From Nemertoderma westbladi (lineage: Eukaryota; Animalia; Xenacoelomorpha), in the NCBI GenBank assembly GCA_032718475.1, contig JAUCBJ010009138.1:1-48265 (forward strand): DNA of 48,265 nucleotides. The letters run 5' to 3'. This document shows, in pieces, positions 1 through 37,905 of the stretch. The translations under genes were made by a program, and so were the position numbers. Under the pieces are notes generated by a model. That model made no database searches, had not been told where the DNA came from, and worked only from the letters and a program-made list of their open reading frames with translations. Positions within the stretch are counted from its first letter, which is position 1, and each line of letters starts with the position of its first letter.

Positions 1-1
1 C

Positions 2-1546
2 AGTCTGGAATCGAGGTATGTTAAGATGTTGGATGCTCTCATCCTCGTCCCAATTATAAAGGTCTGCTTGAGTAGTAGCGAAGTTCTTTATAGCCACCAT
101 TTTCACTGACCTTATCCTATGTTCTCCTAGTTCGTCTTGTGGGGTGGACAACACGCCTACATAATAATCAGCTGTTATTGTAGATTTCCAAACTTGCATA
201 ATGCCTGACATGTTGAGCTTAGTTTGGAACTTGGGTTGTCCAGCAAATATATCTTCGGCTAGCTCTTTATCGATGAATGTTCCTGTGCTGCCGGAGTCCA
301 GGAGGGCGTTCACTACATAACTCCGTTTAGGTCCGTGCACCCTTACCTGCACCACAGGAAACTCTCGGATCCCTACATTGGAAGATGGCTCTTTCCAAGA
401 TGGTTGTCGTTCAGAAGTAGTTAGAGTGAAGTCGCTGTCTGTATCCTTTTCATATGTGAGTGCTCGATACACTGCGGTATTTATCATGTAACAGGATTCG
501 TTTTCGTCGGAGAACTCGTCTGTATAGAATCCTTCCATCTCAGATTGATCAGTGTCGTTCACATCACTGAATTGGACATGTAGCTCGGAATCACTTACCT
601 GATTCGGACTATTTCGATCGAATTCAGCGTGCAACAAGATATGATGTTTCGCACCACACTTTGCACACCTTATGTCAGAGAAACAGGTTCGCCGTTGGTG
701 TCCTTGTCTGAGGCAATTATAACATAACCGCTTATCCCACATGACTTCGCGTCTCTCCGTTAATGATTTCTTTAGAAATTCGTCACACCTATTCAAATGG
801 TGGGTCCCGTCACACAGCGCACATTTTGGTTTGATGTTACTTACCTTATTCTGAGTCACATTGTGTACACTGGCCTTTTCTTCGGGCTTTCTCACCTGAA
901 TTCTCTTGGGAGACGTGGGAGGAGTTTTTCTTACCTGTTCTCTCCTGTCATTTGCTCGAGACTTGAATTTACTTACCTGATCTTTAGGCATTTTATTGAC
1001 ATAATAAGATCTATCAGTGTCTTTCCCGCTATCTTCTCCTTGAGAAGTCTGGCTTTCGCCGTCGTCTGTATAACACACTGGTGTTACCTTTCTCCTAGAG
1101 ACGGGTTTTTCACTTACCTTGTTTTCCGGTGTCTTCTCTCGGGACTGCTTGAGGAGTTGCAATTTCACTTCTCCATCCAAGAATGACATGAGATCAGCCA
1201 TGGTAGGGTCTCGTCGTTGTTGTTCCATCATATATAGTACTTTCTTATCCCAGCGTGTACCTACTCCACCCTTCGGTAAAGTAGAAGCCACTGCTCTAAT
1301 AACCATAGTGTTCTGATACTCATGAGACTTGCCTAGCCAATCTAATTGTCTGCAGATCTCCTGGATCTCATCGGAAAACTCGATAATTCCGCTACTAATA
1401 AACTTTCGGGGCGCTACTAACTTTGCATACAAGTACCCAGCGATATTATTCCTATTACCATACCTGATGTTTAGTGTATCCCAAACTTGTCTTAATCCGT
1501 CTGGATGTCCAATAAACTTTAACGCCATTAACTTGGGAGATCCTTC
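2..1546 (-). pseudogene. gag-pol: BEL/Pao element A gag-protease polyprotein fragment (5'-truncated, runs off the left edge)
   Basis: Manual translation of the minus strand is open. It gives a DUF1759-type Gag (VWDTLNIRYGN...IIEFSDEI), three BEL-type knuckles (CALCDGTHHLNRC; CYNCLRQGHQRRTC; CAKCGAKHHILLH) and the aspartic protease motif ALLDSGSTGTFI. It is absent from the ORF track because there is no stop before the window edge. Confidence 0.9.
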
Positions 1547-1553
1547 CTTCCTA

Positions 1554-3623
1554 GGAACTACGCGAATGATACATATACGAGGACCCGCTGGTTCTACCCA
1601 CGTATTCACTCGAGCGTGTTCCGACGTGATTGATTATTCTTTTGAAACTCTTACGGAGATACAAAAGAAACTTTGACATGGACAATTCGAGCTCGCGCAG
1701 CGTTACGTCACCGACACCGAGCGCAAACCGGCCATGGGTATCGATGGATCAATGTTACCCCAACCTGTACTCGCAATGTTGTTTAACGAAAGAATTCTAA
1801 AAATCGGCTCAGCTGTTTATGGAGATCTCCAAAACGACTTCCGGAATATGGAGAACATTCCATACCCTTTCGTTGATACTCAGCTGATTGCTCCTTGGGC
1901 CGAAGGCCGAGGTTTCTTTCGCACCATGTATGCCAATACCCCCAGCGGCATTACTAAAGTACAACGGACATCCATCGGACATCTGGCCTTTCAAGAATAT
2001 GGTTGGAATTTCAAAGTTGGAAATCCTATAAATTACCAGCAAGTATATGGGGATCATTACTCTCGTTTATATTTTGATGGACCATTAACTGCGCCTGGTG
2101 CCGTATATAGCTTTATGAGTGTTCCCCTTCGTCCTTCCTTAGCTATATACACGATCTTTGAAAACGCAGCACTTGCCGGTTGGCTAGCCGATGTGTGCAG
2201 TCGTACCATACGCGCTCACCCGTTAATACTTGGAACTAAACTCGCCAAGTTAGACGAACACAATAAGTTCATACGTTTCGAATGTTTCCGGCGCTTTCTG
2301 ACTCCGTTCCGTAACGTCGATAGTCAGTTCAAGGATCGCGCGCTGACCAAGCTCAGTCTTAGAGACTCAGCTGCAGAGAAACTGAGTAGCGCTGGATTTG
2401 CCGTCTTTCAAGACGTTTGTATACAGAACCTACATTCATCCGTTATACAAAGACCCCGAATATCTACAGGTTATTCTGTCGTGGAAATACAGACAGTGGG
2501 TCCACTTACGGAAACCGACGCACCCACTTCGTCTATGCAGCTGGAGGATGAACCAGTATGCTTGGAATCAGAAGCGATTCAACCTACGGCTTCCCGGAGC
2601 AGTGACAATGATTATGTCATAGAGTGGTATCAAGGTCCACAGCGTCTCACAGCGTACGATTATCGACACGCCAACTACGTTTCCCGAAAACGTTGTCGAT
2701 TATGCGCATCGAGAGACCACTTCACTCCTCTAGACTCGAGCGTACCTTGTTCCTATTTCCTCGAACAACCGATGATGGAAATATATTGTGCTTATTGCCG
2801 GCTTAATAACTCTCATATATTTGCCGTCTGCCCACAATTTATGACTCAATGTCACTACTGCCAACTTAAAGGACACGAAAGTTACAATTGTCCCTTTAAT
2901 CGCGATTTAGAGAGCGTAGACGAGATGATCACCCTGCGATACATCCGAGCTTGGGAAGCGAACGCAGATTTACATTGCGAATCCAGACATCGCTATTACC
3001 CTGGACGAGCTTACGAGGGAGTTTACGCGTTCCATCCTTACCTATTCGCGTCGATTGAACAGAAAACACGCGTACCAAGTTACGAGTTAATAAAGCGTGT
3101 TGGTGAGTGTATTTCCACCAAGTTTGTCAGGAAATACCTTAGAAACGTTAACCCTAATGATATAACCACATATCACCTGATCAATTTTATCCGTCAGGAC
3201 CCTGAGTATGGCGACATTTTCGTGAACTCGCATCCTGAACTCCAGGAAGTATCTCGGCGCCCATATGAATATCGAACCCGAGAACGCGAGCTGGAGAGAA
3301 CCATTAAACCGAGAAAGTTCCTCACCACTCACGGTCCACCCACCGCTAGTGTCCAGACGACCCGTCAAGGACCCGTAGGAGCTGCTGTCCTGAGACGCGC
3401 TCTAAAGGCCGTTAGATCTCGCTCCACTGAGGTTGATATTAATCAACCAGGTACTTCGACCGGCGGGTATACCGATCGTAACCCTGCACCTTCTGATGCA
3501 ATTATATTGCACCCTTCGCCTAGGAGCTACAGCCCTCCTCGTAAAGTGGCTCGCCCCAAAGAGAAAAGGACTCTTGCTAGCCTCAAGAAACTGCGTAAAC
3601 GCCGTCCGCGCAAGAAAGACTAA
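1554..3623 (+). pseudogene. Element A accessory ORF: DEDDy 3'-5' exonuclease-like domain plus CCHC zinc knuckles and a basic C-terminus (N-terminus lost, in-frame TGA at 1674-1676)
   Basis: ORF 1734-3623 is in frame with 1554-1673. Motifs: LPQPVLAMLFNERILKIGSAVYGD (ExoII region), FVDTQ, SIGHLA, PLRPSLAIYTIFE (ExoIII region), CRLC..H..C, CAYC..SH..CP, CHYCQLKGHESYNC. The tail KKLRKRRPRKK is NLS-like. Clearly homologous to 15610-17661. Confidence 0.75.
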
Positions 3624-3693
3624 CTGTTTAGAGTATTTTTATATTTTAGAAATTGTGATTTTGTATATTTTATAGACTTAAATCCCATTTTCT

Positions 3694-3701
3694 GGGAGCG
3701 G
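3694..3701 (+). promoter_or_regulatory. Probable polypurine tract of element A
   Basis: GGGAGCGG lies directly before TGTAAAAG, about 70 bp after the accessory ORF stop. Confidence 0.55.
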
Positions 3702-4917
3702 TGTAAAAGCTTTTGTGGGATAACTGATTCGTTTGCCTTGTTGGCCAGTTCCCCCCCGGTCGCTAGAATACTCTAAAGGGATCTATAGCTAAAAATAGTG
3801 CAAGCTACCAGCTTATTGGCTGATTTGCTGTACGCAGGTATCTGGGCTCTGTTTAATCGGCCAACCAGCCTAGGGAGGTTGCGTCATAGCCTTGTTTTTG
3901 TATCTCCCAATAGAATTTGAGTTAGCCTTGATTTTGACCTATCACAGAGCTACTGAACTGAAATTTTCCTATCTCACTGCTCTTTCTCTGTGTTGAACGG
4001 GAGCTTCGTGGAATAAGGGTAGTTGGTATCCTCGTATAGAGAGTAGTCACGAGTTTTTCAAAGCCACGAAAGAACGGCTTTTTAGTGTTTTGTGCTTTCT
4101 GCTTTTTAGCTCAACACTAGTAGGTTTAATTATAAGGACATATATCCTTTAACTGCAATTTCGTAATCACTGGCGGCTGTGAATATCACTGGCTTTTAAT
4201 CACTTGAATATCTCACTGCTAAAAATTACCTGCTCAATCAATACTGTATACTGCTATTTGTTGTCGGTTATTCATTATATTTGTTGATGAATTATTATAT
4301 TGGAATAACGAGAAATAACCCCGAAAACCCAATATTCTTGATATACCGAAGGTAAGAGAGAAAGGTTACCAATAACGATTGTGACTTATGTTAAAGTGGT
4401 TTGAAGTGAATCTAATGTTATTTGATAGACCCTACATGAGTCAGTCTGTGTTCCTTTTATATGTGACTAAAATCAGTGAAGATTGGCAGATTAGTGTGCA
4501 GTATTGTGCAGCATTGTGTACGAGTGAGTCTGTTAAAGAAGCATTTCCTAAAGAATGCGCCATATATGTGAATTATAATTAAGCCATATCGTTGTGAGTA
4601 GTTTAAGTCATAACTCTGTTTATATAAATAAAGCGCCACGTCCTAAAGGAACTGTTAATATTCCCGAAGGTGAATAATATTGTCAGAGATTATATAATAC
4701 TGTCAGTCGAATAATACATTAGGCTTACATAGCAATAAAATTAAACCGTCGAACCCAATCTCCCGGGAATATCCAGCGGGTGAATGATCGCGCACAGATT
4801 GGTTTCGACTAGTGTAGTGAATCAAATACTTGTCATAGGCTAAAAAGCGATTTAATATCTAGAAGACATCTTAATTTGGCGGGTTAAACTGCCAAAGGTC
4901 TGAAAGCGCGAACAACA
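3702..4917 (+). mobile_element. Probable 3' LTR of element A (right end uncertain)
   Basis: Starts with TGT after the PPT. Contains TATATTGG...CCCAATATTCTTGAT (~4296-4342), resembling the promoter-like region of the element B LTR. AATAAA at ~4627 and ~4734. Candidate end ...GAACAACA at 4917. No partner LTR in the window. Confidence 0.5.
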
Positions 4918-6186
4918 TCCTTTAAAAATCAAACGAACACTGTGTAGGCCTACAGTATATGTTATAAATTCTTATCACCACTTGGTCAGTATAGAATAAA
5001 TTGAAAATATGCCCATCATAAAATATATTGGCTCAAATGATATTTTCGCACAAAATCGTATATTTAATAATAATGGATTGGAGAAGTAGATATTTCTGAT
5101 TGAAAGCTACAAATTTCAGATATCCAAATTAATATTTCAGTCAACCATGGACTTCAAGAATTTATTTCAATTGATTTAATATATTTGTGGTGATGGTTAA
5201 TGGAATTTTAAATTGCCTGAAATAAGTGATTCGAACGGCACAGTGCTTAAAATAACTTTTTAGGTGAGAGGCTGGCTGGCCTCCGACCTAACAAAGCAGT
5301 GTGAGTAACATTATAGATATTCCCATAGGATTCACTGGGAAGAGCTATTCAGCTGGTGGGGTAAAACGTTACAAACTAACAGTTGATGTTTGATTACTGT
5401 CTGGGATAGAGTGAGAGAGTAATAAATTTGGCAAGTAATATACTTCTGTGCAGTTTGGGCCTATCCATTCAATAAATAGTAGTAGCTTACTAGGCCCTCA
5501 TGAGCAACAGCAGCTGGTGTTTCTATCATGGAGTCTATGGCAATTTTTGTGTTTTGGGGATATTTTTCGAAATAAATAAAAGACACTTTAGTAATTTTTT
5601 TCAATACTTACTTCCACTACTGGGTTAACCTGCGTTGTTTGATATATCTTTCATTGATGGATGAGCTATAGGTTCGGACCTCGCAGTTTTCACTTTCCCC
5701 ACAGCAGTACAACTATCGCTCAACTTCATAATCGCTCACCACACTTACTATACTATAGAAAATTCACTAAACTATAATTAACCAAAGTAACTAAAAGTAC
5801 AACACGAAAACCATTCCAATGTTTAGTTAGTGCATATCGGCTTTCAATAATCGTGACATGAGTTCTTGTTTTGTCATTTAAATAATAATACACATAATCT
5901 TCAACTTCTTTCTATTAGTTATCTATTCTAAATCATTATTAAAATTTATCTGAATTACCGGAAAACAGTCAATTTTAAGTCGTTTTCACTATCTTCCGAG
6001 TTAAACTCAGTACATTAAAATTTAACATAACTTATTTCCAGAAATCTTTACAACTCTGCGAACCAGGGATTAATCAGTATATTAAACCCAGGCTACTACC
6101 CACACGATGATGCTTTCCAACCTCTCGCTGGCAACGCTGCAACTTCTATGATACGCCACATAGAACATGTAAGATACATTTAGATA

Positions 6187-6440: not shown

Positions 6441-7603
6441 CATTCATGTGCATGGCTGGATTTATGAATAGGACAACTAGGTCATGGCCTCGGGACCTCC
6501 CTCCAGGAGGGGGCCCCCCTGCTTCATTACATTTGCACTTCCATTAAAAGCCCATTAAGGAATATGACCTGACCAGTAGTGCCCCTCGTGATTCAGTAGT
6601 AGGCAGATTTGCCTGCTAGCATATTATTAAATGACAACATTCCAGGTTTGTGGTTTCCCAAAATTTCGATAACCTATTCCACTGGTGATTGTTGAATTTT
6701 CTTCATTGTTTTGTTGGCTAGGTTCAGAAACTAAACAAAAATGCTTAATGGAACTGGATAGATTGCATGATTAAAATGATATGTTAGGTCGACCCTGATT
6801 AGCAGAAAAGTTGAACTGGCCGTAGAGAACCCGAAGACTACTCCTTTCTTTATCCATCAATGCGCGATTCTTATCAGCAATATCTTTCATATCAATTGGT
6901 TGCATTTTATGAGTATAGTTGTGTAGAACGATCCCAATCTGATTTGTAGATTCTTGAGCTATTTTGTTGCTGACATAGTTGAACTGTATACTTTCCTCAG
7001 TGCGAACTGAAGCTTTATAGTTTTTATTTCTTGTAGATTCAAATATTTTGTACCACATTATAGTATCTCATTGACATGAGTTGTCGTAATGCCCTGTATT
7101 TCCTTATTGACGATGAGATAGGAAACTGCTGTATCAAATGATTGCATTCACACAAAACTTCCTTGAAAATGAAGTACTATTGTCGTCACCTTCATTCAGT
7201 CCATAGATACATTCTGAAAAGCTGTAGCTTAATATGTATTATCCTCCCTCGTCGGTTTCAGAAATATTTCATGGTTTGGGCATGATCCTAAAGATATGCG
7301 CAGTGTTCGCGGTATTTCAACTTTTCATAACGCGAGTTGAATATTTTTTGTATTTATTTAAAATGATTATTCCGATATCACTACTGGGTGCGGGACCATG
7401 GGTTTTGGGCACACTCAATGAACTGGGGCGATTTATGGCCGAATATTGGGGCGACTTACAGGGTACGGGATTCATTTCATGTATATAAGGGCCAGGGGGG
7501 GAAGGAAAAGTTAAGCAGTATTCAGGTTTACCTGATTACTATTAGGTCTAGCCAACTTCCTGCTGCCTGTAGAGGTGGATTTGGTAACTCGCTAGGTCTA
7601 AAG

Positions 7604-8420
7604 GACAAGGACTGCCCTTAGCGGTCCCTGGCCAACAGCAGTTATTATGAGCCTGAAAAGGACATCGGAAAGGCTGCTGCTTGTGTCAGGGATTTGCGAC
7701 GGGAAACGACGACAGACCCCGTAGCCAAGCCGTACTGGTTCTCGATTATCGTTCCCTTCGGGGTTCGTGAGGGGTGGGACGGACACGCGAAAGGGTCGAC
7801 CAACTAACAAGAGGAAGGGTTTGACGAGGACTGCCCTTAGCGGTCTCTGGTCAACAGCAGTTATTACGAGCCTGAAAAGGACATCGGAAAGTCTGCTGCT
7901 TGTGCCAGGGATTTGCGACGGGAACCGACGACAGACCCCTTAGCCTAGCCGTACTGGTTCTCGATGATCGTTCCCTTCGGGGTTCGTGAGGGGTGGGACG
8001 GACACGCGACGGGGTCGAAAGACAAAGGACTGGACTCTACTGGCCTACCGACTGTTCGGAGCAGTTTCTCGGCTGCCGAAGCGACTACGAGCCTGAATAA
8101 GGACTCGGAAAGCCTAGGTGGTTGGGTCCTGCGATGAACCGACGGACCCCTAGCCAAGCCGTACTGGTTCTCGATGATCGTTCCCTTCGGGGTTCGTGAG
8201 GGGTGGGACGGACACGTGAACGGGTCCACCGACACGACAGACTCCTAGCCAAGCCATACTGGTTCTCGATGACCGATCCCTTCGGGGTTCGTGAGGGGTG
8301 GTACGGATACGCGACAGAGTCTACTGACTGGACCGACCCTTAGCCAAGCCATACTGGTTCTCGATGATCGATCCCTTCGGGGTTCGGGAGGGGTGGTACG
8401 GACACGCAACAGGGTCGACC
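7604..8420 (+). repeat. Tandem GC-rich repeats within the LTR (two ~219-bp units plus shorter units, five hairpin cores)
   Basis: Core CCGTACTGGTTCTCGATGATCGTTCCCTTCGGGGTTCGTGAGGGGTGGGACGG at ~7730, 7949, 8159, 8254 and 8349. Confidence 0.9.
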
Positions 8421-8567
8421 GACACCGACACTACGGCACCAAGACTAGGACCGAGGGAAAATCTGGGGAACATTAGTTAGGCTAAAATCTGAGAGAACAG
8501 TGGGTAATTAAATAATTTACTGTAGGGATTTATATTGTCGTGTATTATTATTGTGAATAATTTGGTG

Positions 8568-8602
8568 TATATTGGTTTGGGGAAGCCCAATTTATTCTCA
8601 AT
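8568..8602 (+). promoter_or_regulatory. Candidate LTR core promoter (TATA-like plus Inr-like)
   Basis: TATATT at 8568-8573 lies about 26 bp before TTATTC (TYAKTY Inr-like, A at 8594). This coincides with the segment complementary to the PBS position. Confidence 0.45.
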
Positions 8603-8800
8603 CAAGGTTCAACTGTAGGGAAGTTACATTAAAGAGTATATCCAACCAATGCAGCTTTTTCTCAACCGCAATCTTGCATTTAAGAACGGGTTCCTTATCC
8701 ACAATCAATATCCGGTGACTGGCCGGGATTCCGTGGTCTGTAAAGTTCCGCCTCCAGCATCGGCGTTTTCCCCCATGGTGTCGGGAATAACGGCAACAAA

Positions 8801-8812
8801 ATTGAGAATAAA
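8801..8812 (+). promoter_or_regulatory. Primer-binding-site position: non-tRNA, complementary to LTR 8591-8602
   Basis: ATTGAGAATAAA lies 2 nt after the LTR end, has no TGG, and is the exact reverse complement of TTTATTCTCAAT. Confidence 0.7.
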
Positions 8813-9005
8813 ACGCGGCCAACTTCAACTGGTGGAAGTTGGGAATCCTGCAATACTCTTCAAACTCTCTCCGTGCTTACCCAGCACCCACTACGAGGAA
8901 ACTCTGGTATTTGAGTTAAGACAAAGCCGTGGTTTAATCAATCGACAAACTCGATCAAATAAACTCGTAGTCGGCAGATCACATATAGAGAGTCGTTAAC
9001 AGGGA

Positions 9006-9197
9006 ATGGAAGTATCGATCACACCCATTGACATAATTCAAGTTGAGCCAGGAATCTGGCACGTCGAGGTTGAAGTACAAGGAACGAACGTCGGACGATT
9101 CAGGATTACCGTTCGAGTAGTCCAAGCCGAGTACGAGAGCTACGAAGAACTATTCTATGACATCGCATATCTCGCTATCAACGAGGCGCTAGAATGA
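9006..9197 (+). CDS. 63-aa small upstream ORF overlapping the gag start (ATGA)
   Basis: Good start context (GGAATGG). Alternating hydrophobic beta-strand pattern followed by an acidic amphipathic helix. Its TGA overlaps the gag ATG at 9194. Confidence 0.4.
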   Translation: MEVSITPIDIIQVEPGIWHVEVEVQGTNVGRFRITVRVVQAEYESYEELFYDIAYLAINEALE

Positions 9198-12100
9198 CAA
9201 CGAACAACGTCTCCGACACCGATGAGATGGACACCCGCACAGACTCGGAAGCCGACGAGGTACCGAATATCAAGAACATGACCCGTCGACTAGGTGCTCT
9301 CAAAGGCGGAGTCACTCGAGCGTATCAGCGTATAGAGAAACAACTCAAGAGAGTCGAAACTCCCCTCAACGAGATACAAACTCAGCTTCAGAATATCCGA
9401 AGTATCTTACAACGATATGAGAGGATGATACAGGCGTATCAAGAACTCGTTCCCTCCACCGATCAGGTAAACTACCCCAGGTTAGAAGAACATGTTGTAC
9501 ATCTAGATGAGTTCCGCAAACAACACCGGAGGACCCTCAGCCTTGTGAGAGGCTACGAAGAACAGTACTACAAGAGAGCTGAAAGAACAGACGCAGAATC
9601 GGTGCGAACCTCCAGCACCAGGACAGCAATACATCGAAAGAGAACGGGGTCCTCTAGGAACCAGCACTCCAGCGCTAGGAGCGCGGTGTCCGGTTCAGCA
9701 CACAGCTCTCAAGGGGGTCAGCCACTCCGGTCAGAACAGAAGGCATTAGCCCTCAAAGCTCGGATGGAAGATGAGTATGTTCAACTGCGAACCGAGCAAG
9801 ATGTATTAGCCGCCGAAATGCAAAACGAGAGGCCGAACAAGCGGCCGAACGGCAGGTTGAACAACGCGAACAGGAGGCTGAACAACATAGACAAGAGGCC
9901 GAACGGCAGGCCGAACAGCATAGACGAGAGGCCGAACAACGTGAACAGGAAGCTGAACAACGTGGACGAGAGGCCAAACAAGAGATCGAACAATGTAAAT
10001 GGGAAGCAGAAATGCGTAAACAACACGCCGAGGCCCAAGCGATTCTCATCCACAAAAAGAATGCGGATATTGCGAAACTCGCGGAATACGAAGCCGCGCT
10101 TTTAGAACGAGATATTCAAATATACGAGGACTGGGAAAGGGGTATAGACCAGAACTATGAACCAATACCGATACCAGAATTAGAGAAGTCCTTAACGACA
10201 CCGGCGGTGAAACCTCCGAAACCCGAGTTCCCGCCTACCATACAGTCTACGTTATTGGCACAAGCACCGGTATTCCATCCCCCACCGGTTACGCTTAAGA
10301 ATGAGGAACCTTATATCCCAGCCAACCCCACGGTCCCGAGCGTTCCCAAGTACGAGCCTGAAAAGGACTCGGAACGGGTCGCTACTCCTCGATCCAACAA
10401 CCCGTTTACATCCACACCACAAATCCGTAGCCGCGTCATCATTAAAACTCCACCTATCATCGATCCATCGTGCATGGGAGAGAGTGCCAATAACTATAAC
10501 CCTCCTAGTCATTCCGGTTCAGACGACGTTGGCATTATCCAGGCATTAGAGAACCGACTGGCCATGCCCAAGATGGAGATCCGCACCTTCGAAGGAGATC
10601 CCGTCGATTACCTCAGATTCAAGAAACGGTTTTTCGCGCAGATTGGATCAACGGACATAGCCGACGCACAAAAGCTAGTATATTTATCCCAATACCTGGG
10701 CGACAAACCACGCCGGATTATTGCATGCTTCGAGGGAGGAGCTCATGAGGCATACTATGACGCATGGAAAACTCTAGATAAAAGATACGGAAATATCGGG
10801 ACTATAATTAATAAAACTCTCGAGAAACTGATACAGGACGCGGGATCCCTAGGGGACCCACAGAATATCCAAGAATTCTCAGATTCGATGAAGGATGCCT
10901 ACTACACTCTAAAACCATTAAATAAGGAGGAACAAGTAAACAACATTCTAAACCTCCGACAGATCGCCCGGAAGTTCCCCGGATGGCTACAAAGTAAGTG
11001 GGCGTATAAATGCGTAGATCTCCGGCGCAGACACCCAGATCGATGATCCCAGTTTCCTCGAAATGTCGGCATTCCTGGACGATATCTCCGAAGCCATGAA
11101 TGACTCGATGTTCTCGAAACAGAGTCTCGCCAAGTTAGACGGAATAGAGAGCAACTCCAGGAGTAAGACGCCCACTCAGAAACCGAGATTCCGTCCCCCT
11201 CCGGTGAGTACGATGGCCATCACCATGGCCGAGGATTCCGATGACGAAGACTACGAGGAACCGACATCAGCCGAGGAATGGGCGTGTTACCTTGCGAATT
11301 GGGCACCCGAAAGGGGAGGCATCACAAACTCCCTTCTCTGTCTCTTCTGCGGAGAGAAACATAAAGTGGAATTCTGCAGGAAGTTCCAGTTTGCCGAACT
11401 CGTCCCACGCTTCGAGGCAATAATGAAACACCGAGGATGCTTCCGGTGTCTTGGAACAGGTCACTATGTTCGGGATTGCGACCAAAGATCATGCTGTGCG
11501 GTCTGTAATGACCTACGTCATCACACACTCCTCCACATCCCCACGAACTTTGACTTCACCACCCTCCCCTTTCGGATTGAAGCCAAACGAAGAGGAGAAA
11601 CGAACCACGTTTCTAAAGGAACCCGGACGACCCAACGGAGAGAAACCAACCCGTTTAAAACCTCCACCGATGCATCACAAGTAACAAATATCTCAGCCAC
11701 GATCAACCTTATAAATCGCCGTTACATGGTCTTCGCCAAAGTAATCCCAGTAAGAATTCAAGGGGTCGGGAAATCCTTGACAACGCTCGCGTTCCTTGAT
11801 AACGGGTCGGACGGAACCATCATCGACCGGGATTTCCTCGAGCAAATCGGCCTAGACTATGAACCTTGCAAACGGCCCATACAAACTATCACCGACCATA
11901 GAGAAGTAGAATCCGGGGAGGTGCAGCTCCAGATGGAAGGAGTAATGAAGGGCTACGAGACGGTTAAGCTGACAATCAAGAATGCCTTGGTACACACCGA
12001 TCTCCGAGTGCGGTTCCGACAATCAGCCGAATACGCCCCTCTCATACAGTTAGACCGGGAAGATGTAGACCTAAGGTGCCTGCCGTTGGACGTAAACCGC

Positions 12101-12511
12101 ATCACCCTATTGATCGGACTTGACACACCGGAATTACACATACCCACCGGAGACGTCGCCCGATCTATAAAGCAGGATGACGGCTTTTACGCTGAACGAA
12201 CAATAATGGGATGGACACTCTGCGGCATCAAGGAAGAGACTACAGACACCTATACATACCTTCCTAAATGTCAGATTAAAGAGAATGCAACCTCCGTGGG
12301 TTATTGTTCGGTGACCGACCTCCACTCACCATCACGGCGACACACCACGTTTGTAGCGAACCGAGCCACGGAGATAAAACAGTGCACCGGCCGAGAACAG
12401 TGGCACCATGTAAATGGGAAAGAAAACCCAGCTGACTTATCGAGCAGAGGCGCCACCCCACGACAGCTCGGTAAAAGTAAACTCTGGCTTACAGGCCCGA
12501 AATTCCTATAG
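9194..12511 (+). pseudogene. gag-pol: Element B gag-protease fused to an RNase H C-terminal remnant; frameshifts at ~9822 and ~11042; RT deleted at ~12320
   Basis: Coiled-coil Gag and DUF1759-like FEGDPVDYLRF...KLVYLSQYL. Knuckles CLFCGEKH..C, CFRCLGTGH..C and CAVCNDLRHHTLLH. Protease AFLDNGSDGT and RTIMGWTLCG, followed directly by FVANR...WHHVNGKENPADLSSRG. Confidence 0.92.
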
Positions 12512-14245
12512 CAGCCACAATTAACATGGAGTACCCGATTCGATCCCGAACTCGATAGCGGAAAATACTCCGAGGACGACAAAAAAGGCCGTAAAGTCCA
12601 TAGAAGCAGCGCAGTGGAAATCTATAGTTGTCTGACCGAGCCTGCAAAGGACTCGGGTAGGCACTATAACGTCGCGACAATCACTCAACCAGCGGCGTCT
12701 TTACATCTGTTGATCGAGCGAACTTCATCAATGAGACGGCTCATCCACCACATTATAACCCTTCGCTACTTCCTACGGTGGAAAGACAACAAGCCGATAG
12801 TTCAACGGAGTATACAAGAACTCATTATCGCGGAGAAGTGTATTGTTGGATATGTCCAGAGAGAAAGTTTCCCCGATGAGTGAGAACAACTCAGTGCGGG
12901 CAAGACCTTGAAACCGGACAACCCAGTCTACCAACTGAGACCAATGATGGGAGAGGACGGACTGATTCGACTGAATACCCGGATGGCAAACGCCCCGGTT
13001 GAATATGAGGTTAAATACCCAGCGCTTCTGCCCGGAATGTCGACACTAGCCAAGCTATTAATCCAACAGTGCCACGAGGAAAACCATCACGCAGGACAGA
13101 ACTGGATTATAGCTAATATACGACAAAGGTATTGGATCACCCACATCCAGCCACTGATCCGGAATGTGTTAAAACGTTGCTTTCCCTGCAGAAGATATCT
13201 AGCGCCACCACTCACACAAAAGATGGCCGACTTACCAGCCACCCATCTACAGTCCGATTCCCCACCGTTCTATGTAACCGGAGTAGACTGTTTCGGACCG
13301 TTTACAATCATCGAGCGACGATCCAACATCAAATGCTGGGGAGCCATCTTTACCTGCCTTAGGTCTAGGGCAATCTACCTAGACATCGTGGTGAACCTTA
13401 CGCAACACGCATTCATCAACGCCCTGCGTCGGTTTGTGGCGAACAATGGGACATGTCTTCATATGTACTCCGATAAAGGTACAAACTTTGTGGGAGGAGA
13501 AAGAGAACTTAGAGAGGCGATCGAGGGATGGTTTACCAAGGACACCGCATCCCAAGTCTGGAGGGACCACCATATACAGTGGCACTTCCAAACACCCTTA
13601 GCACCCCATACGAGCGGGGTATGGGAGAAGCTAATCGACTTAGTAAAACGATCTATGCGCGTCGCATTAGGAGACACCCGCGTAACCCATGACACCCTCC
13701 GCACAACATTCTGCGAGATCGCGGCTACCCTGAACAACCGGCCCATTGTCCCTATCCGCGACGACCCCACAGACCTGGAGCCTCTCACTCCTAACCACCT
13801 ACTGGGAAGACCCAAAACCCATATTCTCCCAGAGATGATGTTTCCGGATCCCAACGATATCGCGAGACATACAAATTGGAAGAAGGCCCAAGCGTTGGCG
13901 GCGCATTGGTGGAGAATCTGGGCCCAGGAGTACCTCATAACCCTCCGGACCAGGAGGAAGTGGAACAACACCTATAGGAATGTCGCGGTTGGCGACATGG
14001 CGCTAGTGAAAGAAGATCTCAAAGACCGCGTCCACTGGCCTGTGGCGCGAGTCGTGACAATACACCCGAGCAAAGACGGACTTGCGAGGACTGTGACGAT
14101 ACGAATGGCAAAGGGCCACTACCAACGCCATATCCAGAGGCTGTGCCTTCTTGAAGGCAATGACAGTGGTGACTCTACGAGAGGTGATATGTTCCCTACT
14201 CAGGATCCTGCTGCAGACATTGGTGACAATGCTAAACCCGTGTAA
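12512..14245 (+). pseudogene. pol: Element B integrase region (same frame, read through stops at 12509-12511 and 12881-12883)
   Basis: HHCC finger (HEENHH...CFPC), DDE core (GVDCFGP, SDKGTNFVG, GVWEKL), PLTPNHLL, and the BEL C-terminal domain (WAQEYL...WPVARV). Confidence 0.93.
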
Positions 14246-14518
14246 ACCCTTCTCATACTGTTGACAAACTCTTTTAAAATGTGATTTATCGACAATGAAA
14301 ATGGACACCCTTAAACCAACTGTAACCACGCAATGGTATTTGTGTTTCCTCGTGTGTTATGTGGAGTCCAGCGTCACCCTGCAGATGTTTCGACTGATGC
14401 AGTGTCGTTTATGTATTGTTAACCCTGATTTTGGTCAACAGGACCAACGACATTGGATTATTGGAAATGGTAAAGATTTGAAGTGGAATTCATTGTATTC
14501 ATTGTAGTATGTTATGTT

Positions 14519-14945
14519 GTCCGTTGCGTGCGCAGTTCGGGGCGTAGGCGGTGTAACTAGTCCAGCTGTAGATCCCGGATTGCCGCGCAACACCCCCTCT
14601 ATCCCGTTATTCTGGTGGGTCCATGGTGCATCCACATGACTTCGACGATAGAGGTTTTAAGTTTCTCAGTCGCGCTATTCTGGTGGGACCGTTCCGTGGA
14701 TTTTGGGGCGTAGGCGGTGTAACTAGTCCAGCTGTAGATCCCAGAATGTTGCGTAACCCCATCCCACATGACTTCGTCGGCTGAGCTTTATGTTGCTGGG
14801 AGTGTTATTCTGGTGGGTCCCTGGTGCATTCCACGTGACTTCACTTCCAGCGTCTTCATTGTCCGTTACGTGTGCAGTTTGGGGCGTAGGCGGTGTAACT
14901 AGCCCAGCTGTAGATCCCAGATTGCCGCGTAACACCCCTTCCACA
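14519..14945 (+). repeat. Three imperfect direct repeats between integrase and the accessory ORF
   Basis: GGGGCGTAGGCGGTGTAACTAG(T/C)CCAGCTGTAGATCCC at ~14539, 14705 and 14881. TATTCTGGTGGG also occurs three times. Confidence 0.85.
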
Positions 14946-15485
14946 ACGAAAATTTCCCAAAGAAGATGATTGAATGTAGTTGGAAATGATGAAAAGAAAC
15001 AGACGACATTATTATAAACTGAATGGTGACGCGTATGCTGATGAAAATGTAATGATGCGCACCCTGGTGCTGCGCTTATAACAAATGATGATAGCCGGGG
15101 GGCTATAACCCCAATGATGATGTGGAAATAAATGAAATGTGAAATGGTGGAAATAAATGATGAAATGTGTTGAAATAAATGAAATGTGAAATGAAATAAT
15201 AATGAGAAATGAAAAAAGACAAAAAAAAGGTATAAAAATGTAAAAAGAAAAGAATTGGAAAAAAGAAGAGGACATAAAAAGTCAAAACTGGTTGGATATT
15301 AATGTATAGCTATAGTAACTGTAAATGCTGAATGTATTAGCAATAAGATGGTAGATGCCTATATAGCAATGTTGTTTAATAAACTGAATTAAAAATAAAC
15401 TGAATTATTCTGCAATCACTATAGTATCAGACTTTCTAGACTTATAATTAACTGATATAAATTTGCAACGGACATAATTGTAAAT

Positions 15486-17686
15486 ATGGACCCAAATCGC
15501 CAAATTATCGGCGAATTACGTAATACGATAGATCTACTGCCTCAACCTGGATCCACAACCTGGAGCCCCTAACTTTGATACAAATTGGAGCACCCTGATA
15601 AATGAGAATGTGCGAGTCGTCAAATTCTCCGGGCGAGAGGGACCGGATTCCCGGAATCTACGAGCCCTCCGGTTGGCCGATGCTAGTACGAGACTGAAAA
15701 GAACTCGGAATGCAAAGGCTACCGGAGGGGATGAGTTGTCGTACTGGGATACGTTCTGGCAAAGCGTCTACAAATCCCAATGTTTGATATACGACAACGA
15801 GGGAAACGCAACGCCCACCTCGAAAGCGATGACGTTGGCGCGATGTCAAAGTTTCGTCGACGACAAGAGTACGTACTGGGGAAACCTAGCGGAGTGTACG
15901 GCGACGCTACGAGAGGAACGTATATCGGTTATCCAGAATCGCGACGACTACCAGGAGAAGTACGAGACGAAAGAATACGGTCGATCCTTGGTCGTCGTCT
16001 TCGGTACCCTGGACGGTTTGGTGTTGGTGTGTCGAATATTTCCGACACCCAGACAGGAGGTACGGACAGCCGGAGCGATCTGGCTACTACCGCCGGAGAT
16101 CCAAAAGATCCTCTTCGACTTCGACGTTATTAAAATCGGGTCGGATATAAAAGCGGACGTCCGTAACGACTACGCGAACGCTCCTTTCGGAAGAGACCGT
16201 AAAGAAGATCTCAATGCCATTAGTCACTGCATCGACACCCAGACACTACTAGCCTGGTTACGATCCGCCGAATTCATGCGAGGATTCCGCGAGGTGAGAC
16301 AGACGAAATCCGGGATCGGCTACCTCGCTGTGCTAAACGGCGGCATCGACTTTAAACCTCAGAAATTCCAGGACTATAATAAGATATATGGTGGATACCC
16401 GGGATTAGAAATAAGGAGCGAGCGAGAGAGTCGATGGAAGGACGTTGACAGGAGGTGGACGATACACCAAAGGTGGGAGAATCCCAATCGACGGAACTAC
16501 ATCTACGTTGTTATGGAGCCCTACACCGTCGCTAAGTTTATATGTAAAACTCTCGATAACCTCATTACGGCGGTTCCTCTTTCCTTTGTCGACTACGACT
16601 GGAACGAGGTTATAAACAACGCGTTCAAAGCGGTCGAGAATATTACACTGGGAGAGACAAAAACGTTCACCGTTATCGATTCCTGGGACGAGAACGGACC
16701 TTACAACATCCCTACGATTACCGATCTTCTCGGTGCGGAGGAGCCTCTGATTTCTTCGGAAGGGGAAGAACTATGGCTACATGAGGGCGTTCTACTGTCT
16801 ACCCCAAAGCGACCACTCGAGCCGGAAGCTGCGTATGAACCGGCCGCCAAATGGGTTGCCTCGGCCGAACCTGCGACGGAAGCAGGTGCTTCCACCCCAC
16901 TCGGCTCCGGTAGCCCTGCGAGGGAGTTAGTCACCACCTCCGCGTTGAGCGACTTTGGCGACATATGCCAGAGGTTATCCCCATATCCTTTCCCGGGTGG
17001 CGAAGACTGGTCGTCGGAGATTCCGAGTACCAGCAATCAACAGACCCGCTCAGCGATACTGGTCGAGAAGGGTCCTAGCGCTACGCCGACTCCCGAAGAT
17101 CTCCTTGGAATTCCTCCGTCGAAAACCCCGGCACCTCTGCGCCGACCAGCAGTGACAACTACCCCCTCCGTTCCACAGGATCCTATGCGATTAACCCGAT
17201 GGTACGCCGAGCAGACCGAATGGATCCACCGCCAGAAACGGTCGTCCGAGATGAGACTGGCAGGACATAAAGAAGGTTATCGGAGCGAGAACCTACTACG
17301 CCAAAGCCCAGCCTTCCGCGGGCTACCGGCCACCGCGAATATTCAAAAGAGCGACCGACGACTCGAGTATTACGTCGGCGTCTCAATTCCGATATTCCCC
17401 GGTCGAGAGATGCAGTTGGAGATATGCGCAAACTGCGGTTCGGAGCAGTGCCCACGTGGTAGACGAAATCGGGTTACCGATTCGTGCCTACAGCTCCTCG
17501 GGATCCTGTATTGCCCATACTGCGCGACATCGGGACATGATGTCTCGGTTTGTCCAATCCTTTATAACCTCTGCACAACTTGCGGTTTCCGTGGACATTC
17601 CACTAGCCCCCGCTGCTATATAAAATGTCCTACAAAAGACGTTACCACTATGGGAAATTAGGTCATGTTCGAAACATACGCAAACG
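15486..17686 (+). pseudogene. Element B accessory ORF: DEDDy 3'-5' exonuclease-like domain, Pro-rich linker, zinc knuckles
   Basis: Main frame 15610-17661. Probable true ATG at 15486 with a 1-nt frameshift at ~15549. ExoI IYDNEG, ExoII VIKIGSDIKAD, CIDTQ, GIGYLA, ExoIII W...YVVME, then CPYCATSGHDVSVCP and CTTCGFRGH. Truncated by the deletion into the 3' LTR. Confidence 0.78.
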
Positions 17687-18190
17687 GGGGTGGTACGGAT
17701 ACGCGACAGAGTCTACCGACTGGACCGACCCTTAGCCAAGCCGTACTGGTTCTCGATGATCGATCCCTTCGGGGTTCGGGAGGGGTGGTACGGACACGCA
17801 GCAGGGTCGACCAACACCGACACTACGGCACCAAGACTAGGACCGAGGGAAAATCTGGGGAACATTAGTTAGGCTAAAATCTGAGAGAACAGTGGGTAAT
17901 TAAATAATTTACTGTAGGGATTTATATTGTCGTGTATTATTATTGTGAATAATTTGGTGTATATTGGTTTGGGGAAGCCCAATTTATTCTCAATCAAGGT
18001 TCAACTGTAGGGAAGTTACATTAAAGAGTATATCCAACCAATGCAGCCTTTTCTCAACCGCAATCTTGCATTTAAGAACGGGTTCCTTCTCCACAATCAA
18101 TATCCGGTGACTGGCCGGGATTCCGTGGTCTGTAAAGTTCCGCCTCCAGCATCGGCGTTTTCCCCCATGGTGTCGGGAATAACGGCAACA
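17687..18190 (+). repeat. 3' LTR of element B (5'-truncated, 504 bp)
   Basis: Collinear with 8295-8798, about 6 substitutions by eye. Confidence 0.95.
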
Positions 18191-18995
18191 CGCAGAGATG
18201 GGATTTGATTTAAGGTGGTAAAAAGTATTTTTTCAATATTTTCTGGAAACCTTCCCATTACATTTAAAATTCGATGTAAAACAAATATGTATTCGAGCTG
18301 TACAAGTGGAACCTCAAATATTACATATTTCTTAAAGTAATGGCTCATGGGAGCATTTTTGAAAAAGAAAAAGTTTTTTTTCCTAAAATGGCCACACTTA
18401 CTTGAAATTTGCACTATTTGAGGTTCCACTTGTGTAGCTCAAAATTCAGTATACGGGTCGAAAATTTCATGACAATTGGATTTACAGATCTCGAGAAAAA
18501 GGAACGTGAATAAAATTAGGTCCGCAATATCGCGGAAGGAGTAAATGGAGCTGAAAGTCAAAATATATAGAATGTGCCATATTAATACATATACATATGA
18601 GTTTTGAAAGATTATGATTCATGTGATGTTAGTTGGATTTTCGGAATGAACATAAAATTCTGCTCTAGTGGGGAAATCTGGGAATAAAATTTCAAAATAA
18701 ATGAATTTCAAAAAATGATCTTATACGAATTACAAATGTCAATGCTGCATATATGCTGCATATATGCTGCATATAACAAAGACCAATCCGCCAAGGTAAT
18801 ATTTCATGAGCATAATTCAAACAAGAAAAGGGAATAACTGGAACATGTACTGGAAGTAGAACATGCCTCTTTAAAAAATGAGCCAAATTTTGAAAAATTG
18901 GCAAACCTCCGCTTTGATAAATTTCACCGAAAAATAATGCTTATAACTTTTGCATGCTTGGCATAAACCGTAAACATATATTATATTTGTTATAG

Positions 18996-19150
18996 GTGAC
19001 GGGGGACTGTGTTTCCCCAGAGATGACTATGTACGTTGACACTGACTACGGCGGAGATTCAGTTACCACTAATGGGCCACTTGCTTTCAATGCTCCCGCC
19101 GCCATCCAAATGGATAACAAGATATCTTCATTGAAGATCAGATGTGGGCA
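18996..19150 (+). CDS. Beta/gamma-crystallin-family gene, exon encoding Greek key 1 (upstream exon not identified)
   Basis: ttatag| ... |gtaagt. Translates VTGDCVSPEMTMYVDTDYGGDSVTTNGPLAFNAPAAIQMDNKISSLKIRCGQ with a phase-2 donor. Confidence 0.85.
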
Positions 19151-19267
19151 GTAAGTGAAGGGCTGAGCATAAAAAGGTCCTATATGACATTTTCTTAGAA
19201 TCAGAGTTCCACTCATACAGAGGTCCTATGAGAACTAACTTAACTAACCAATAAGGTTCTGAGATCA

Positions 19268-22200
19268 TATGAACAATACTGTCTGATATCCTGGAGTAAA
19301 ATAGTCCTATGTACAGTAAAAATCGCATAGACATAAACAAAAAAGGTCTTATGTACAATACTGCCTGATATCCTGGAGTAAAATAGTCCTATGTACAGTA
19401 AAAATCGCATAGACATAAACAAAAAAGGTCTTATGTACAATACTGCCTGATATCCTGGAGTAAAATAGTCCTATGTACAGTAAAAATCGCATAGACATAA
19501 ACAAAAAAGGTCTTTTTTACAATACTGCCTGATATCCTGGAGTAAAATAGTCCTATGTACAGTAAAAATCGCATAGACATAAACAAAAAAGGTCTTATGT
19601 ACAATACTGCCTGATATCCTGGAGTAAAATAGTCCTATGTACAGTAAAAATCGCATAGACATAAACAAAAAAGGTCTTATGTACAATACTGCCTGATATC
19701 CTGGAGTAAAATAGTCCTTATGTACAGTAAAAATCGCATAGACATAAACAAAAAAGGTCTTATGAACAATACTGCCTGATATCCTGGAGTAAAATAGTCC
19801 TATGTACAGAAAAAATCGCATAGACATAAACAAAAAAGGTCTTATGAACAATACTGCCTGATATCCTGGAGTAAAATAATCCTATGTACAGTAAAAATCG
19901 CATAGACATAAACAAAAAAGGTCTTATGTACAATACTGCCTGATATCCTGGAGTAAAATAGTCCTTATGTACAGTAAAAATCGCATAGACATAAACAAAA
20001 AAGGTCTTATGAACAATACTGCCTGATATCCTGGAGTAAAATAGTCCTATGTACAGTAAAAATCGCATAGACATAAACAAAAAAGGTCTTATGAACAATA
20101 CTGCCTGATATCCTGGAGTAAAATAGTCCTATGTACAGTAAAAATCGCATAGACATAAACAAAAAAGGTCTTATGAACAATACTGCCTGATATCCTGGAG
20201 TAAAATAGTCCTATGTACAGTAAAAATCGCATAGACATAAACAAAAAAGGTCTTATGTACAATACTGCCTGATATCCTGGAGTAAAATAGTCCTTATGTA
20301 CAGTAAAAATCGCATAGACATAAACAAAAAAGGTCTTATGTACAATACTGCCTGATATCCTGGAGTAAAATAGTCCTTATGTACAGTAAAAATCGCATAG
20401 ACATAAACAAAAAAGGTCTTATGAACAATACTGCCTGATATCCTGGAGTAAAATAGTCCTATGTACAGTAAAAATCGCATAGACATAAACAAAAAAGGTC
20501 TTATGAACAATACTGCCTGATATCCTGGAGTAAAATAGTCCTATGTACAGTAAAAATCGCATAGACATAAACAAAAAAGGTCTTATGTACAATACTGCCT
20601 GATATCCTGGAGTAAAATAGTCCTTATGTACAGTAAAAATCGCATAGACATAAACAAAAAAGGTCTTATGTACAATACTGCCTGATATCCTGGAGTAAAA
20701 TAGTCCTTATGTACAGTAAAAATCGCATAGACATAAACAAAAAAGGTCTTATGTACAATACTGCCTGATATCCTGGAGTAAAATAGTCCTTATGTACAGT
20801 AAAAATCGCATAGACATAAACAAAAAAGGTCTTATGTACAATACTGCCTGATATCCTGGAGTAAAATAGTCCTTATGTACAGTAAAAATCGCATAGACAT
20901 AAACAAAAAAGGTCTTATGAACAATACTGCCTGATATCCTGGAGTAAAATAGTCCTATGTACAGTAAAAATCGCATAGACATAAACAAAAAAGGTCTTAT
21001 GAACAATACTGCCTGATATCCTGGAGTAAAATAGTCCTATGTACAGTAAAAATCGCATAGACATAAACAAAAAAGGTCTTATGAACAATACTGCCTGATA
21101 TCCTGGAGTAAAATAGTCCTATGTACAGTAAAAATCGCATAGACATAAACAAAAAAGGTCTTATGTACAATACTGCCTGATATCCTGGAGTAAAATAGTC
21201 CTTATGTACAGTAAAAATCGCATAGACATAAACAAAAAAGGTCTTATGTACAATACTGCCTGATATCCTGGAGTAAAATAGTCCTATGTACAGTAAAAAT
21301 CGCATAGACATAAACAAAAAAGGTCTTATGAACAATACTGCCTGATATCCTGGAGTAAAATAGTCCTATGTACAGTAAAAATCGCATAGACATAAACAAA
21401 AAAGGTCTTATGTACAATACTGCCTGATATCCTGGAGTAAAATAATCCTATGTACAGTAAAAATCGCATAGACATAAACAAAAAAGGTCTTATGAACAAT
21501 ACTGCCTGATATCCTGGAGTAAAATAGTCCTATGTACAGAAAAAATCGCATAGACATAAACAAAAAAGGTCTTATTTACAATACTGCCTGATATCCTGGA
21601 GTAAAATAGTCCTATGTACAGAAAAAATCGCATAGACATAAACAAAAAAGGTCTTATGTACAATACTGCCTGATATCCTGGAGTAAAATAGTCCTTATGT
21701 ACAGTAAAAATCGCATAGACATAAACAAAAAAGGTCTTATGTACAATACTGCCTGATATCCTGGAGTAAAATAATCCTATGTACAGTAAAAATCGCATAG
21801 ACATAAACAAAAAAGGTCTTATGAACAATACTGCCTGATATCCTGGAGTAAAATAGTCCTATGTACAGAAAAAATCGCATAGACATAAACAAAAAAGGTC
21901 TTATTTACAATACTGCCTGATATCCTGGAGTAAAATAGTCCTATGTACAGAAAAAATCGCATAGACATAAACAAAAAAGGTCTTATGTACAATACTGCCT
22001 GATATCCTGCTGGAGTAAAATAGTCCTATGTACAGTAAAAATCGCATAGACATAAACAAAAAAGGTCTTATGTACAATACTGCCTGATATCCTGGAGTAA
22101 AATAGTCCTATGTACAGAAAAAATCGCATAGACATAAACAAAAAAGGTCTTATGTACAATACTGCCTGATATCCTGGAGTAAAATAGTCCTATGTACAGT

Positions 22201-22915
22201 AAAAATCGCATAGACATAAACAAAAAAGGTCTTATGAACAATACTGCCTGATATCCTGGAGTAAAATAGTCCTATGTACAGTAAAAATCGCATAGACATA
22301 AACAAAAAAGGTCTTATGTACAATACTGCCTGATATCCTGGAGTAAAATAGTCCTATGTACAGTAAAAATCGCATAGACATAAACAAAAAAGGTCTTATG
22401 AACAATACTGCCTGATATCCTGGAGTAAAATAGTCCTATGTACAGAAAAAATCGCATAGACATAAACAAAAAAGGTCTTATTTACAATACTGCCTGATAT
22501 CCTGGAGTAAAATAGTCCTATGTACAGAAAAAATCGCATAGACATAAACAAAAAAGGTCTTATGTACAATACTGCCTGATATCCTGGAGTAAAATAGTCC
22601 TTATGTACAGTAAAAATCGCATAGACATAAACAAAAAAGGTCTTATGTACAATACTGCCTGATATCCTGGAGTAAAATAATCCTATGTACAGTAAAAATC
22701 GCATAGACATAAACAAAAAAGGTCTTATGAACAATACTGCCTGATATCCTGCTGGAGTAAAATAGTCCTATGTACAGTAAAAATCGCATAGACATAAACA
22801 AAAAAGGTCTTATGTACAATACTGCCTGATATCCTGCTGGAGTAAAATAGTCCTATGTACAGTAAAAATCGCATAGACATAAACAAAAAAGGTCTTATTT
22901 ACAATACTGCCTGAT
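19268..22915. repeat. 82/83-bp intronic satellite, about 44 copies
   Basis: Unit TATGTACAATACTGCCTGATATCCTGGAGTAAAATAGTCCTATGTACAGTAAAAATCGCATAGACATAAACAAAAAAGGTCT, near-identical copies. Confidence 0.97.
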
Positions 22916-23483
22916 TTATGCAAAACAATTTTGAAGTTTTTGAAAATAATTGTTTTTGAAAGTAAAGATTTTGAAGTACTCTTATGTACTATGTACTCTA
23001 TGTAGTAATCTATGTACTTACTTGCATGCAAAAATACAGATTGCCAACATCAACTGTGTTTTTTATGCTGATCCCTTCATTTGCTTGCAGTTAGACTGTT
23101 TCTAAGTCTATCTTTTTCAATGTATTGTTTGAATGTTTATAATTAGTGTACATTATCGCTGCAAGTGTTAATATGCCTACTGTTAAATGTCATATTAATA
23201 AATATTCATAACAAAAACATAAACCTTTCCCACTGACTGACCTTTCAACCTCAATCAGAATAACCAAACCAATCTCTCTGCTCTTTTTTTTATTGTTGTA
23301 AATACCGTTGAGTAAAAAAATTAAAAAAAATGAAATTATTAAAAAAATTTAGTTTACTCGCTACGATCGATCACATTACTCTAACTAAAATGAGTAACAA
23401 TAAAATGTAACTTGGTAGAAGACAAACCTCCATCAATGGTGATTACCTAATCTTGCTACATTTATGTATCTTGTGATTATAAG

Positions 23484-26160: not shown

Positions 26161-26269
26161 TGGCGCATCCTTTACTTCCACAATGATCGGACCACTCACA
26201 ACAGGACAATATCTCTCAACTGATATAACCCCATTGAATAATCTAATATCCTCAGTGAAACTTGTATAA
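26161..26269 (+). CDS. Beta/gamma-crystallin-family gene, last coding exon (Greek key 4)
   Basis: ttcctttcag|, in frame: NGASFTSTMIGPLTTGQYLSTDITPLNNLISSVKLV*. Confidence 0.85.
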
Positions 26270-37452: not shown

Positions 37453-37776
37453 AATTGCTAATTATCATAAATATTGAAAACGATAATAGAAAAAGTGCGT
37501 GAAAAATATTATAAAAATTATAAGGCCTAAATAGTTCCTAAAGTAGCCCTATAGTTCCAAAAAATGGGGCATCAGAAAATAAAAATGGAAAATAACGGAG
37601 GAGTAGTCTTTTTAGTCAAATTTCTGACATCTCCAATTCACTGACATAGGGCGCGACGTATTTTTTGACGGTTCTCTTTTCGATGGTACTCTATTTCGTT
37701 TTCTATGCATATTTCAACCACATTGGAAAAGCTATTACGTTTCTTCATCTCCCTCAAATATCAAAGTCCATAATGC

Positions 37777-37905
37777 GGGGAGAGAGGGATAGAGAGAGGG
37801 GGAGAGAGGGGGAGAGGGAGAGAGAGAGGGGGAGAGAGGGTGAGGGGGAGAGGGAGAGAGATAGGGGGGGAGGGGGAGAGAGAGAGAGAGAGGGGGAGAG
37901 AGGGT
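37777..37905. repeat. GA-rich low-complexity tract (left half)
   Basis: GGGAGAGAGG-type repeats. Confidence 0.9.

Follow-up and report, generated by a model that had tools for sequence, protein, structure and literature searches.

Two highly diverged homologs of a predicted exonuclease gene with zinc knuckles, one of them in a BEL/Pao retrotransposon

The window analysed here, the whole stretch of 48,265 nucleotides, is repeat-rich eukaryotic DNA, likely from an animal, and carries satellites, LINEs and two BEL/Pao-type pieces. Two homologous accessory genes lie on its plus strand, ORF A at 1551..3623 and ORF B at 15486..17661. Elsewhere in the window, a tandem array with an 82-bp unit occupies 19098-23000 and a near-perfect 23-bp satellite, interrupted by a 100-N gap at 28882-28981, occupies 26086-34540. 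A minus-strand LINE (38114-42135) encodes a coiled-coil ORF1, an APE and an RT and has GA-rich microsatellite on either side (37761-37936 and 42172-42404), which suggests a target preference. A non-LTR RT is accompanied by nearby inverted partial self-copies (46592-48265, 46435-47106 and 35907-36302).

ORF A is a 5'-truncated gene composed of an exonuclease-like domain, a linker, zinc knuckles and a basic tail, and has no transmembrane segment. Its exonuclease core (1752..2200) presents the motifs in the order LP (at 1752), ExoII (Asp at 1824-1826), DT (1875-1880) and ExoIII (YTIFE at 2148-2162, with Tyr at 2148-2150 and Glu at 2160-2162). Upstream of the core, 1563..1610 likely encodes the beta-hairpin that comes next after the ExoI strand in the homologs described below; it was the best-scoring place for this hairpin in all four scans. 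Three Cys/His units follow at 2694..2891, the last two being CCHC knuckles (CX2CX5HX4C and CX2CX4HX4C). The C-terminal tail (3546..3620), with 13 Lys or Arg per 25 residues, is a possible nuclear localisation signal; the corresponding figures are 8 and 11 in the homologs P0004 and P0006 and 4 in B. A seemingly conserved motif after the knuckles fell short of significance, as 78 of 500 shuffles matched it. After 70 bp of AT-rich DNA come a PPT-like tract (3694-3701) and a TGT starting at 3702 (together 3694..3704, plus strand), where a 3' LTR likely begins; repeat coverage downstream of ORF A goes on to 5000.

This copy of ORF A is broken. The earlier note had taken 1554-3623 for one open frame, which is not the case: an in-frame TGA at 1674-1676 interrupts it, and its 5' end is cut at 1548-1550. 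Nearly all other copies are free of the stop, at which more than 99.8% of the depth differs in each of four runs. No ExoI block above chance was found in this copy (99 of 1000 shuffles were equally good), since the 5' cut makes it begin downstream of ExoI.

Element B (7304-18190) is a defective BEL/Pao copy, the family being assigned from gag and integrase. Its 5' LTR (7304..8798, plus strand, TGT...ACA) is preceded by CGCAG at 7299-7303, which recurs at 18191-18195 as a 5-bp target-site duplication around the element. This LTR measures about 1.5 kb, against 0.2-1.2 kb stated for the BEL/Pao family, and contains tandem repeats (7604-8430) spaced about 95 and 219 bp apart. Gag, protease and integrase (9161..14245, plus strand) carry frameshifts and stops and stand in the expected order, with matches to DUF1759 (E=1e-13), Integrase_H2C2 (E=2e-9) and DUF5641 (E=3e-27). 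The RT is missing: no RVT match was found in the element, and merely about 1.1 kb separates protease from integrase. Within gag, a 21/33-bp tandem repeat (9825-10019) encodes a charged, coiled-coil-like stretch, with a frameshift near it.

ORF B fills the third-gene slot, downstream of the integrase and upstream of the 3' LTR. The long frame (15532-17661), which is in a different phase from the first ATG (15486), carries ExoI (Asp/Glu, 15793-15801), ExoII (Asp, 16156-16158), ExoIII (Tyr/Glu, YVVME at 16504-16518) and knuckles (17425-17616). The frame ends right after the last knuckle, without the basic tail that A, P0004 and P0006 have, and runs into a 3' LTR remnant (17687..18190, plus strand) in which only the final 504 bp of some 1495 bp survive, 98.8% identical to 8295-8798; the deletion that shortened the LTR thus likely trimmed ORF B as well. 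No clear PPT was found in element B. The proposal that a PPT and TGT follow both genes at the same position agrees with the PPT-like tract and TGT of A and is not borne out for B. A stretch starting with TGG, a candidate for the tRNA-Arg or tRNA-Gly primer site of BEL/Pao elements, is found some 30 bp past the LTR. A G-rich tract plus TGTAA, repeated three times in tandem between integrase and ORF B (14517-14945), has 9 bp in common with the PPT/LTR border of A at 3698; the copies are possibly relics of another LTR start, which would hint that B is recombinant. At 17667-17686, the first six letters of the 5' LTR reappear 20 bp ahead of the 3' LTR remnant, representing either the true start of the deleted LTR or chance.

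The relationship between the two genes had been proposed from collinear protein blocks. All the quoted blocks are present and collinear, and pairwise alignment confirms the homology: BLASTP aligns 113 residues at 28% identity (E=2e-9) and the knuckle block at 35% over 34 residues (E=5e-5), and the Smith-Waterman score is 111, whereas 300 shuffles averaged 40 and never exceeded 61. At the DNA level no similarity was detected, as previously claimed, the best blastn match being 13 bp long (E=0.16). The ORFs are 27% identical.

More distant relatives were sought with a profile of the A and B domains against 1.84 billion representatives at E<=0.001. Three homologs were obtained, P0004, P0005 and P0006, which are singletons on contigs of 9449, 2199 and 9194 bp; no close cellular homolog was found among these representatives. 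The five proteins match each other at E<=0.001 in all 10 pairs. Word-based searches returned nothing for the whole of B or for the A/B profile and only P0004 itself for the five-row profile, and locus searches in viral and metagenome contigs gave no relative; two loci from a degenerate motif scan proved unrelated by tblastn. The exonuclease domain is combined with a C-terminal CCHC array in four of the five proteins, P0004 and P0006 ending in knuckles, and the linker between the two parts spans 130-300 residues.

Of the predicted active-site residues, DxE (placed on a strand), ExoII Asp and ExoIII Tyr occur in each of P0004, P0005 and P0006; the latter two residues are invariant in all five proteins, and the ExoI DxE is also present in B, at Asp88/Glu90. 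There, the block of 16 residues taken from the homologs reaches a score of 20, while no other place exceeds 3.7 (2 of 1000 shuffles), and the site remains the best with the D and E columns masked; this placement needs an insertion of about 40-50 residues after ExoI, as D and LP lie 98 residues apart in B versus 45-61. Two other ExoI candidates were rejected. DTE at residues 54-56 of A is too near LP, and P0006 has a second DTE there besides its true ExoI. A dead-ExoI reading derived from MAFFT (ISVIQN in B, SFE in A) was discarded for B, where another block fits far better, and may keep some residual chance for A.

The earlier note had also pointed to Glu at the last ExoIII position. YTIFE in A and YVVME in B do fall in the same columns as YxxxE in P0004 and YxxxD in P0005 and P0006, so the D-to-E variant is common to A and B and occurs in a third, outside protein. 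B and P0004 carry D, E, D, Y and E at the five positions. YxxxD being absent from A and B, we file these two as DEDDy-like variants. An unrooted five-row tree splits the E and D groups with a support of 95, which fits one change. The ExoIII placement in A rests on gapped alignments; an ungapped scan ranks YTIFE second, and the profile alignment leaves it unaligned.

Structural comparisons are consistent with the DEDD exonuclease fold, which the proteins are predicted to adopt from a low-confidence model of one homolog. Pfam gave no exonuclease match in A or B and only E=0.2 in P0004. The sole sequence-level family match is that of ORF A to RNase D (TIGR01388, E=0.015). HRDC had no Pfam match in any of the five proteins, although Pfam misses the exonuclease as well. 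In the Atlas, where the B domain only was used, PF01612 clusters reached 0.92 with 25 of 30 matches, the shared features numbering 160, below the 170 mark; a PDB sequence search with the same domain gave 0 matches. The single-sequence model is poor (mean pLDDT 34), and so is the five-row model of P0004 (mean 32, core 55-62). In a Foldseek search with the latter, no match reached E<=0.001; the first 11 listed rows are EXD2, and 35 of the 42 rows are DEDD-containing. Upon realignment this low-confidence model gave Z 8.8 against EXD2 (rmsd 3.2, 103 residues aligned) and Z 6-7 against RNase D, Nibbler, TbRND and Egalitarian, with WRN and polymerase proofreading domains listed as well; three rows of the realignment we take to be members of the DEDD family. 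The viral fold library yielded nothing meaningful and PHROGs only noise.

For the knuckles, the family profile matched the HIV-1 nucleocapsid (E=4e-5) and, far more weakly, Lin28 (0.36), Air2 (1.7) and TbRND (E=9.7). On this profile comparison they resemble retroviral nucleocapsid fingers and, weakly, those of Lin28 and Air2. Of the two comparisons suggested earlier, the one with Air finds a faint echo, whereas the 26 matches include no Nanos structure.

At 2..1547, on the minus strand, lie the 3' part of a BEL/Pao-type gag and a protease, with the 5' end cut at the junction and the other end running off the window (DUF1759, E=2.5e-4, below the cut-off; Asp protease, E=1e-3). The junction between this minus-strand gag and plus-strand ORF A (1548..1550) comprises three extra bases echoing the neighbouring CTTC run and, within 1541-1557, a 10-bp palindrome, an end-joining-like configuration. 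It appears to be private to this copy: in all four runs, contigs with loose ends terminate at 1547 or begin at 1551-1554, and of 3647 pieces the 32 listed include none that bridges it; gag and ORF A both appear to continue in other copies. No RT or integrase of element A was found in the window; the left part of the element, with any left LTR, lies outside.

We infer that ORF A and the BEL/Pao gag next to it are parts of one element. The earlier suggestion that A and B stem from an old lineage which kept the gene vertically may hold, but A has no RT or integrase in the window, B has lost its RT, and the connection of A to gag runs through a junction that no other listed copy shows. A single event, the internal inversion of one element, would yield the present arrangement, and a nested insertion followed by a deletion may also account for it. 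An alternative that we consider unlikely is that ORF A comes from another repeat than the adjacent gag, for instance a gypsy-type or non-autonomous element into which a BEL/Pao element was inserted before a deletion, the likeness of A and B then reflecting gene exchange and not one lineage. The private junction with no contig joining its two sides among the pieces listed would agree with it, as would a summed depth (not a copy number) 2-4 times higher on the gag side than on the ORF A side, and exchange of DEDDy ORFs between retroelement classes has been proposed (PMC5408684). However, inversion achieves the same arrangement in one event, both sides are present in all four runs, and the homolog B sits in a BEL/Pao element. 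Moreover, the gag-protease at 2..1547 is 27-29% identical to that of B, equal to the 27% of the ORFs, both values being near saturation.

The ORF A family is highly repeated. We compared copies among the contigs of four runs, three labelled as one organism and one as another, which gave 36,870, 9,373, 458 and 208 contig records on 1-5000. With 36,870 contigs of one run alone, A is not a single-copy host gene, the possibility raised as a refutation in the earlier note. Only differences with a share of at least 30% in a run were listed, and the sites are not independent events. In 1551-1760, 21 of the 27 listed differences fall on third codon positions (p=3e-6). When the two stop-codon rows are left aside, 19 of 25 are synonymous in these 210 bp, against 24-29% expected (p<2e-6), and pN/pS is about 0.10-0.13. 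The same is true for six of eight further listed sites of ORF A, which complete the scope of the test, and on the gag side 18 of 27 listed differences are at third codon positions. The excess of synonymous differences indicates purifying selection across the copies of family A, in agreement with what had been suggested.

These observations bear on the possibility that the gene was taken up passively from the host and is an exonuclease gene in decay that does nothing for the element. In its favour, neither copy in the window is intact, and rotifer ORF3s show no departure from neutrality (PMC5408684). We nevertheless regard passive capture as largely refuted and scarcely credible, given the synonymous excess in ORF A, the lack of the stop in other copies, the absence of indels inside ORF A among 12 of the 27 rows, the coexistence in one genome of two versions 27% identical, and the lack of a close cellular homolog among the representatives searched.

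In our joint reading, to which we would give an even chance, the family is a conserved accessory gene for an RNase D/EXD2-like 3'-5' exonuclease, likely active, whose knuckles hold RNA while RNA 3' ends are trimmed for the element. Activity would be retained with Glu as the last metal ligand. The four other catalytic residues are kept across proteins 27-29% identical, which argues for activity; the Glu may impair catalysis, since in TbRND metal A is bound directly by the ExoIII Asp (PMC7797062). The same position feeds a rival explanation that we find rather unlikely, in which the Glu-bearing members are pseudo-nucleases whose fold and knuckles only bind RNA in the way of Egalitarian or EXD1, and which serve as a CERV-like adaptor for export, localisation or packaging. 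The basic tails of A, P0004 and P0006 would suit such a role, Egalitarian and Exd1 are among the fold matches (Z 6.0-6.4), PMC5408684 counts EXD1 and Maelstrom among the inactive derivatives of DEDD enzymes, and CERV is an export factor of an LTR element (PMC10309623). Against it, none of D, E, D and Y is lost in B or P0004, and three proteins 27-29% identical have an acidic residue at the fifth position. Dead nucleases usually lose catalytic residues outright, which also counts against a binding-only role. Finally, a D-to-E change at another position is reported for rotifer ORF3s (PMC5408684).

If the family is indeed enzymatic, its action could be modelled on TbRND, which combines an exonuclease with a CCHC array and in which RNA binding and cleavage depend on the knuckles (PMC7797062, in part). 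By this analogy, the zinc knuckles would grip single-stranded RNA and the nuclease would trim its 3' end, RNA being the probable substrate. The likeliest job would be to remove host-added 3' tails from the element RNA or to destroy small silencing RNAs; LINE-1 is restricted by uridylation (PMC6191937). This counter-defence step is the weakest of the proposal, and we hold it only tentatively, as somewhat unlikely. The fuller version, an old BEL/Pao group with active 'DEDEy' exoribonucleases that share the TbRND-like build with a knuckle array and strip host-added 3' tails or destroy piRNA-type RNAs, we judge improbable.

The predicted exonuclease could also act on DNA, trimming the 3' ends of cDNA or of strand-transfer intermediates in the particle, in the manner of WRN or EXD2. 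EXD2 is the best fold match, WRN and polymerase proofreading domains are listed too, and the knuckles are nucleocapsid-like. Nucleocapsid fingers bind single-stranded DNA as well, a point in favour of a DNA substrate. But with a model this poor, differences in Z between DEDD members carry no diagnostic weight, RNase D is the only family matched at the sequence level, and replication proceeds in most BEL/Pao elements with no gene of this kind (PMC8742986 and PMC3118150). We consider a DNA enzyme distinctly improbable.

The published exonuclease genes of LTR elements that we found are restricted to rotifers and come without shown selection or function, whereas the present family shows selection. 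Because it naturally carries Asp in some members and Glu in others at one metal-ligand position, the catalytic and counter-defence questions can be tested directly. If the enzyme does remove host tails or small RNAs, it would be a rare case of an animal transposon countering silencing with an enzyme; should the 'DEDEy' reading be true, an animal retrotransposon would encode an enzymatic suppressor of RNA silencing.

An exonuclease domain was reportedly described in a C. elegans BEL element (Malik et al. 2000), which the literature search did not confirm. PMC5408684 states that none had been reported before. The search, whose coverage excluded subscription journals and Repbase, gave no paper on a BEL/Pao exonuclease among the matches listed; the word DEDE is in no paper among 15 listed of 31 matches, and the retrieved passages of PMC11662393 and PMC9094657 hold nothing further on exonuclease-bearing elements. 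Env-like genes are the sole third genes named for BEL/Pao in the ICTV profile (PMC8742986) and in the passages of PMC3118150, in which the word nuclease is absent.

Among cellular proteins, TbRND is similar in its DEDD exonuclease domain followed by a CCHC knuckle array (PMC7797062, in part), and it appears in both the fold matches (Z 6.0-6.3) and the knuckle matches. It is, however, a mitochondrial enzyme with four knuckles after a 28-residue linker and the canonical Asp (same source), whereas the present family has three units after 130-300 residues. The TbRND-like architecture may be convergent, the similarity being weak and showing no sign of orthology. EXD2, WRN and mut-7 (Nibbler), of PF01612, are the best fold matches and share the motif order DxE, LP, G..D, DT, Y; unlike them, our proteins have the ExoIII Glu, large lineage-specific insertions and knuckles, and no sequence match above the cut-off links the two groups. 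With canonical BEL/Pao elements (Belpaoviridae), as described in PMC8742986 and PMC3118150, the present ones have in common the DUF1759 gag, the protease, the DUF5641 integrase, the LTRs and the target-site duplication.

The closest precedent is found in bdelloid rotifers, where DEDDy ORF3s occur in the LTR retrotransposons Juno and Vesta and also in Athena/Terminons, with a DEED motif and no demonstrated activity, as reported in PMC5408684 and restated in three reviews (PMC6431247, PMC5718144 and PMC6338049). As in our family, the ORF3 of Juno and Vesta is an RNase D-like gene placed after pol, replacing env, and has an altered acidic signature. By description and not by sequence, the two differ in the signature (D-E-D-E here, changed at the last position, versus DEED), in the zinc motif (a knuckle array here, a Cys-His-Cys motif in two families there) and in the mode of evolution (purifying selection versus neutrality); the carrier here, for B, is a BEL/Pao element. 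Exonuclease ORF3s in rotifer elements are thus already known from that paper, and what is new is the BEL/Pao carrier, the TbRND-like knuckle array and the D-to-E variant.
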